This document shows, one piece after another, positions 59,005-59,130 of a stretch of DNA of 64,000 nucleotides (within the stretch, counting starts at the first letter, position 1; the number at the start of each line of letters is the position of its first letter). The notes under the pieces were generated by a model. It was not told the origin of the DNA. It saw only the letters and a program-made list of their open reading frames with translations, and made no database searches. This DNA is from Candidatus Brockarchaeota archaeon. GTDB lineage: Archaea; Thermoproteota; EX4484-205; JAAOZP01. The stretch spans positions 4,002 to 68,001 of the forward strand of contig JAFNJB010000056.1 of the NCBI GenBank assembly GCA_017601245.1, written 5' to 3'. The position numbers and the translations under genes are program-made.

Positions 59005-59130
59005 TATCCAGATGCTTGTCTAACCTTCTTCCTACCAGTCTTCCTGGGAGCAATCAAACCAACCTTAGCACCAGGCGGAGCATTACGGCTAACAGAAGTA
59101 GAACCCCCTACGTGGTAGTGATAATATTCT
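59005..59130 (-). pseudogene. rpl2: Relic of the 3' end of ribosomal protein L2 (about 40 codons)
   Basis: Own translation: [41 protein letters not shown]. Matches the universal uL2 C-terminus (H.HGGG...[21 protein letters not shown]). Bounded by stop codons. Confidence 0.5.

Follow-up and report, generated by a model that had tools for sequence, protein, structure and literature searches.

Integrative elements that insert at the 3′ end of a tRNA, tmRNA or protein-coding gene are flanked by attL and attR, direct repeats that each include this 3′ end. On one side of the element the gene remains whole; on the other there is only a truncated, silent copy of it. Insertions of the Campbell type and those made by homology-facilitated illegitimate recombination leave a homologous segment duplicated, with one copy on each side of the inserted DNA. 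At integration hot spots and in defence islands, a given pair of core genes encloses cargo that differs between strains or species. We analysed a 64,000-nt stretch of DNA (the window) from a hot-spring lineage of Nitrososphaerota/Thermoproteota, in comparison with loci of relatives (numbered L001–L105). The window contains a fragment of the 3′ end of the ribosomal protein gene rpl2 (the relic), whose stop codon lies 3.4 kb from the start of rps19. We conclude, with a probability of roughly 0.75, that the relic is a duplication scar from the recombinational insertion of a 5.35-kb lineage-specific cassette at the end of rpl2. The positions of all features are given in Table 1.

Table 1. Features of the rpl2–rps19 gap in the window, in order of position.
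Feature	Position	Strand	Remarks
73-aa ORF	54939–55160	+	Between rps19 and rpl22; weak DUF5305 match (E 1.4e-5)
rps19	55189–55599	−	First gene of the detached distal operon half
BRE/TATA-like motif, GGGAAAGGTTATTATACCC	55621–55640	−	21–40 nt upstream of the rps19 ATG
237-aa membrane protein, double zinc ribbon	55775–56488	+	Strand opposite to the operon
Degraded cassette-end copy	56638–57368	−	
Frameshifted p196 homologue (in degraded copy)	56638–57218	−	Split into ORFs of 71 aa and 105 aa
Giant C-terminal remnant (in degraded copy)	~57234–57368	−	
AAA_14/DUF4143 ATPase gene	57433–58764	+	Convergent with the 196-aa gene
postR	58783–59002	−	Native DNA 3′ of rpl2; T-rich; between convergent genes
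Repeat continuation, TATTTCTATACTT	58990–59002	−	Into the rpl2 3′ flank, past the 8-bp indel
R2 (relic)	59003–59114	−	Perfect 112-nt copy of the rpl2 end: last 37 codons and stop
Stop of relic frame, TAA	59006–59004	−	
Relic frame, coding part	59129–59007	−	
In-frame stop upstream of relic frame, TAA	59132–59130	−	
Spacer (65 bp)	59115–59179	−	From the stop of the 196-aa gene to R2; gives the EYYHY codons and the upstream stop
196-aa gene (p196)	59180–59770	−	
Giant gene	59777–64000	−	Runs off the window end; 1510–1517 aa in full

The relic strand reads cgTAAgaa tat tat cac tac cac gta ggg ggt tct ... gca tct gga TAA, so that a 41-residue peptide is bracketed by two in-frame stops. An earlier note on this DNA had described these stops, which are present, with coordinates that are 1 nt off; because of this shift its exact coordinates translate in the wrong frame. 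Its reading of the peptide as the C-terminal tail of ribosomal protein L2 was borne out by a phmmer search of PDB and by a 112/112 nt match to the genome's own rpl2, which is far above chance. The PDB matches were exclusively to uL2/L8 chains, at their C-terminal 30–35 residues (E-values 7e-8 to 1e-4; for example, residues 208–239 of archaeal L2). The Pfam L2_C model gave no score for the 41-mer, because the fragment is too short. The L2-derived part comprises only 38 residues (HVGG...QASG), starts at His (CAC, 59114) and is identical throughout to the C-terminus of the genome's own uL2, of which it represents the last 16%. The leading EYYHY is non-L2 and derives from the spacer after the 196-aa gene. 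By sequence homology the relic belongs to the C-terminal fragments of uL2, and it lacks the complete ORF, the L2_N and L2_C domains and the start codon of a functional rpl2. In its frame the first possible start is Leu25 (TTG), and the frame is absent from the ORF list. Therefore nothing of 20 aa or more could be made from it, and the relic is non-coding and not a gene.

The window was 100% identical over 14.8 kb to contig JAWCJM010000003.1 of assembly GCA_038853335.1 (L001), and an exact-sequence look-up placed the 196-aa protein on 16 contigs. The gene order on the long contigs is RNA methyltransferase, rpl3, rpl4, rpl23, rpl2, giant ORF, 196-aa ORF, relic, AAA_14/DUF4143 ATPase (opposite strand), small fragments, Zn-ribbon protein (opposite strand), rps19, 73-aa ORF (opposite strand), rpl22, rps3 and rpl29. 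The intact rpl2 encodes 243 aa with L2_N and L2_C and lies ~0.6 kb past window position 64000. According to the earlier note, the cassette had replaced most of rpl2 together with rpl23, rpl4 and rpl3, and a functional rpl2 was to be found elsewhere. No other L2 sequence occurs within the 64-kb window, as that proposal would have it; however, the giant ORF has no stop before position 64000 and runs off the window, so only its 3′ 1408 codons had been seen and rpl2 was out of view. A search for the intact rpl3-rpl4-rpl23-rpl2 block, which the earlier note had advised, found it in canonical order immediately 5′ of the giant gene, both on the contig of the window itself and in at least five independent sister assemblies. 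This refutes the replacement, which we regard as next to impossible. An intact rpl2 thus does exist, at its canonical place and not at another locus, and the order of rpl2 and rps19 is kept despite the insert. Foreign DNA does separate the two genes; it amounts in total to 8.9 kb and not to the 3.4 kb first proposed. The start of rps19 at 55599 was confirmed (Pfam S19, E 6e-30). The core ribosomal operon has not been mutilated, and there is no need to look for another rpl2 locus.

Comparison of the relic with the intact gene showed that the two form a direct repeat. The proximal copy, R1, is the 3′ end of the functional rpl2 and the distal copy, R2, is the relic. The relic is therefore not the rearrangement breakpoint for which it had been taken; the earlier note rightly saw in it a relic of the rpl2 3′ end, but it is no orphan left by gene replacement. 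R2 is identical base for base to positions 5171–5282 of L002, the end of the intact rpl2, whose last 112 nt are CACGTAGGG...GGATAAA. Beyond these 112 nt the copies are separated by an 8-bp indel, GATTAAAA, which is present 3′ of the real rpl2 and missing at the relic, and 16 further nt then match; the repeat is 112–133 bp long. R1 lies ~5.5 kb from R2, just beyond the window, and the 5353 bp between the repeats hold a promoter-like region, the giant ORF, the 196-aa ORF and the spacer. The relic sits between the convergent 196-aa and ATPase genes and is followed by postR, which lies directly 3′ of rpl2 in L018 and, in a diverged form, in L087. The alignment of relic and intact gene had been proposed as a way of dating the event. 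It could be made over 112/112 nt, and without a single difference from the live gene the relic offers no means of dating an old event. A second relic was sought near rps19 and behind the degraded cassette copy, and none was found. The R sequence had no matches among viral contigs. In metagenomes it matched one additional contig only. Neither a circular form nor an empty site in the same species was seen, which counts against the insertion model.

A repeat of this kind can mislead an assembler, and the earlier note was right to ask that the assembly be checked. In L001 a run of 277 N (5163–5439) starts within the last rpl2 codons, at the repeat. The deposited rpl2 of this MAG is consequently called 5 residues short (238 vs 243 aa), and the R1–giant joint of the window's source record falls in the gap. 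This gap immediately after R1 and the several contigs that begin or end inside or at R would be compatible with a chimeric join through a collapsed repeat, which could have created either the relic or the rpl2–giant joint. Two other contigs end precisely at the left edge of R, as is expected of a repeat with two contexts. Against an artefact, the perfect 112-mer occurs twice per locus in L002, L003, L004, L095, L096 and L097, which are independent assemblies (NCBI MAGs and JGI metagenomes), and both joints, including the one lost in the N-gap, are sequence-resolved there with unique flanks. In addition, the p196–spacer–R2–ATPase joint was found in 16–22 contigs, and diverged versions of both joints occur in L018 and L104. 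We consider an assembly artefact hardly conceivable.

The two ORFs of the cassette are lineage-specific. Searches of the giant ORF and p196 against Pfam, NCBIfam, PADLOC and PHROGs, across 14 homologues, revealed no known domain. The p196 family is restricted to the lineage and numbers 15 clusters; the structure model of p196 was confident, and no structural neighbour was found for it. The giant protein family comprises 13 clusters. The protein has a hydrophobic leader at its N-terminus and further hydrophobic segments internally. Among the giant homologues P0016–P0028 the N-terminal third (~550 aa) is variable, and the C-terminal two-thirds are 52–57% identical. Such a pattern resembles that of proteins whose variable domain is exposed at the surface and whose conserved body is cytoplasmic. 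The C-terminal ~130 aa are predicted to form an alpha-beta-beta-beta-alpha-beta arrangement with a D (YVYFDF) and an ExK (IVECK) motif. The AF2 model of the C-terminal 807 aa was poor (pLDDT 52), and all Foldseek matches obtained with it had E >1e-3. The only local matches with reasonable probability were to restriction-endonuclease folds (ASFV RPB5-like subunit, MspJI), and the giant family profile found no match among PDB sequences. We treat the PD-(D/E)xK-like character of this stretch, which derives from structure prediction, as a lead and not as a result.

Beyond the relic, the ATPase matched the PADLOC defence candidate PDC-S01 (E 4e-100). The DNA of the ATPase gene is 93% identical between L002 and L088, while the adjacent p196 is only 73% identical, which suggests separate exchange histories of these neighbouring genes. 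The degraded cassette-end copy has only 71–77% DNA identity to 59184–59921, which points to an older or foreign cassette generation as its source. No tRNA or Rfam element that could have served as an integration target was found nearby, and there are no terminal inverted repeats at the cassette ends. With neither inverted repeats nor a transposase domain, and with a duplication of 112–133 bp, the cassette does not qualify as a transposon or IS element.

What follows rpl2 differs widely among the relatives. In the more distant relatives examined, L016 and L017 (L2 ~55% identical), rpl2 and rps19 are adjacent in the canonical state, rps19 starting 31–130 bp after rpl2. The gap measures 330 bp in L008 (L2 82%) and 630 bp in L007 (L2 92%), where it holds tiny remnants of the giant C-terminus and of p196. 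In L018 (L2 92%) rpl2 runs straight into postR and the ATPase gene at 93–94% identity, which is the configuration to be expected without the cassette and one repeat copy. L018 also carries a second relic, truncated to 66 nt and with 5 mismatches to its own rpl2, which lies behind a p196 copy and has the same spacer/R joint as the window. At 82% DNA identity across the region, L104 has rpl2, the giant gene and p196 in this order, with the same left joint (TATACTT/GTTTT). The adjacency of rpl2 and cassette, being common to L104, is old, while the identity of R1 and R2 is perfect.

Between the truncated relic of L018 and rps19 there is a gene for a 325-aa protein (10400–11377, minus strand) with a weak match to NucS_C (E 2.5e-4), a PD-(D/E)xK domain; the window has the Zn-ribbon membrane protein at that position.

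Other relatives carry further cargo. In L087 a restriction–modification (R-M) system consisting of a D12 methylase, a PD-(D/E)xK_11 nuclease and an N4/N6 MTase (157–2756, reverse complement) lies between rpl2 and the giant gene, and L004, from the same metagenome, is the R-M-free allele. A different R-M system (MvaI_BcnI / ThaI / N6_N4 MTase, 7050–8967) stands between rpl2 and the cassette in L090 (p196 65%). Housekeeping genes (POR, NrdD, PALP enzyme) follow rpl2 in L010 (L2 71%), L012 (L2 84%) and L093 (p196 62%), and rps19 is absent within 7–10 kb of rpl2 in these three. The content of the gap also varies in L020. In L088 (p196 72%) a cassette remnant and the ATPase gene (10001–12921) are located upstream of the rps13-rps4-rps11 operon with no rpl2 nearby, and the p196–spacer abuts the ATPase 3′ flank without R or postR. 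In L105 (giant 53%) a giant–p196-like pair is found among ParE/HicAB genes (8001–12778), again with no rpl2 nearby. From this variety it follows that the rpl2–rps19 gap is a strain- and species-variable island, in which variable cargo and known defence genes lie between the same flanks as in defence islands and hot spots. The gap is hypervariable and defence-island-like in this hot-spring Nitrososphaerota/Thermoproteota clade. The giant–p196 pair is an old resident of the island that has been repeatedly rearranged, duplicated and eroded.

These arrangements can best be explained if the cassette entered the chromosome by recombination at the rpl2 end, an event that would most likely have been driven by homology and would have duplicated the last 37 codons and ~20 nt of the 3′ flank. 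One possible route is a Campbell-type single crossover with a circular intermediate that carried the rpl2 end. An equally possible route is homology-facilitated illegitimate recombination, in which a linear fragment anchored by rpl2 homology would have been joined illegitimately at codon 206, with the microhomology joint ...ATCACTAC/CACGTAGGG. The spacer/R joint shows only a few bases of possible microhomology (ATCAC...CAC; 3–5 nt), the remainder of the duplication being one long stretch of perfect homology. By either route rpl2 would stay whole and the spare copy would be untranslated.

The event is not very recent, as indicated by the spacer/R joint in L018, whose flanks are 5–7% diverged, and by the rpl2–giant adjacency in the 18%-diverged L104. 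Despite this, R1 and R2 differ at 0/112 positions, compared with 5/66 for the L018 relic, from which we infer gene conversion or re-creation of the duplication; the copies would stay identical through recency or gene conversion. Recombination between R1 and R2 could delete the cassette precisely and give the L018 arrangement, which may thus be a secondary deletion rather than the ancestral state. A circle excised in this way would carry the junction spacer-R-GTTTTCATTAATC. L088, with neither R nor postR, implies either that a precise deletion took place at microhomology (CaCGTaG / CtCGTgG) or that the cassette naturally ends where the spacer does, and it is the main loose end for the insertion model. 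A single order of events that joins the arrangements of L002, L018, L088 and L104 was sought, and none could be derived.

The same repeats might have arisen by site-specific integration, R1 and R2 being attL and attR, the rpl2 3′ end having been carried on attP and the integrase having been lost or supplied in trans. Like att sites, R1 and R2 are direct repeats that overlap the 3′ end of a gene which is kept intact. A cassette-free relative exists in L018, where rpl2 leads into postR and the ATPase gene in an unoccupied arrangement that may be ancestral or secondary. The giant–p196 pair moves, since in L105 it is found at an unrelated locus beside toxin–antitoxin genes. However, no tyrosine or serine recombinase domain was detected in the giant ORF, p196, the ATPase or the Zn-ribbon protein (Pfam, NCBIfam, PADLOC, PHROGs), so that these proteins include no integrase such as an integrative element encodes. 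No L2 fragment follows p196 in the more distant cassette copies of L012, L020 and L105, which shows that R is not an intrinsic cassette end, and the spacer of L088 ends without R. Furthermore, the identity of 112–133 bp is longer than a typical att core. We consider site-specific integration unlikely.

A further reading concerns the cassette proteins themselves. The giant ORF and p196 could form an undescribed self-mobilising or defence module, in which the PD-(D/E)xK-like C-terminus of the giant protein would target the rpl2 end and the 112–133-bp repeat would be the recombination site. We regard this as quite doubtful. If it were true, the ribosomal-protein cluster would be a dedicated landing pad in this archaeal clade.

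The perfect conservation of R2 might also reflect a retained function. R2 and postR could have been kept as a terminator or 3′ end for the giant–p196 transcript, or as a recombination handle that makes gain and loss of the cassette reversible. R2 shows zero divergence although its joint predates the split from L018, whose relic is changed at 5/66 positions, and T-rich tracts follow the relic stop. On the other side, the L018 copy is truncated and decaying, and L088 lacks the R2–postR block. A scan for intrinsic terminators found nothing at the relic, a sigma-70 and terminator scan being uninformative for an archaeon. As gene conversion would account for the identity without any function, retention for a function seems very improbable, and we keep to the insertion scar.

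Tolerance of insertions in the gap could be explained by the DNA just upstream of rps19. The motif GGGAAAGGTTATTATACCC looks like an archaeal BRE/TATA promoter, a reading of the sequence that follows the general features of archaeal promoters. At the same distance from rps19 there are GGAAAGATTATATAT in L018, GGAAAGATTCTTATAT in L007 and GGAAAGGATTAAATAT in L008, so the position of the motif is conserved in these three loci while the surrounding DNA is unrelated. Insertions would be tolerated because rps19 would have its own promoter. On the other side of rps19, the 73-aa ORF has 83–96% aa identity in L007, L008 and L018, and this conservation indicates that it is probably a real small gene lodged in the operon.

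The normally tight rpl2–rps19 junction is thus a permissive, strain-variable island in one thermophilic clade. R-M systems, a PDC-S01-type ATPase and two ORFan families are lodged in it, and transcription of rps19 apparently starts at a promoter of its own. Since the repeat is a point where contigs break, the arrangement matters for annotation and binning. It is, moreover, a small natural example of duplication scars that stay identical to an essential gene. A literature search found no earlier description. The relic is genuine but unremarkable; target-preserving insertions are well known to leave scars of this kind. The context is more notable than the relic, namely a defence-island-like region within a ribosomal-protein cluster with two uncharacterised lineage-specific families.

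Compared with the known systems, the locus resembles the attL/attR elements in that the repeat holds the 3′ end of the target, in that the target is intact at one end with a truncated, silent copy at the other, and in that a relative (L018) shows the unoccupied arrangement. Unlike those elements, it has a long identity tract (112–133 bp), no integrase was found, only two ORFs lie between the repeats, and distant cassette copies occur without the L2 fragment. With Campbell-type and homology-facilitated illegitimate insertions it shares a homologous segment duplicated to either side of the inserted DNA, one joint with only 3–5 nt of microhomology, and a duplication that permits precise loss by recombination. 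The donor molecule is putative here, and the direction of events is inferred from relatives only. Finally, the locus is like an integration hot spot or defence island in that one pair of core genes encloses different cargo in different strains and species; here the cargo consists of two kinds of R-M system, a PDC-S01-type ATPase, nuclease-like genes and ORFan cassettes, in which a defence role of the giant–p196 pair is putative. What sets this hot spot apart is its place inside the S10/spc ribosomal-protein cluster, between rpl2 and rps19.
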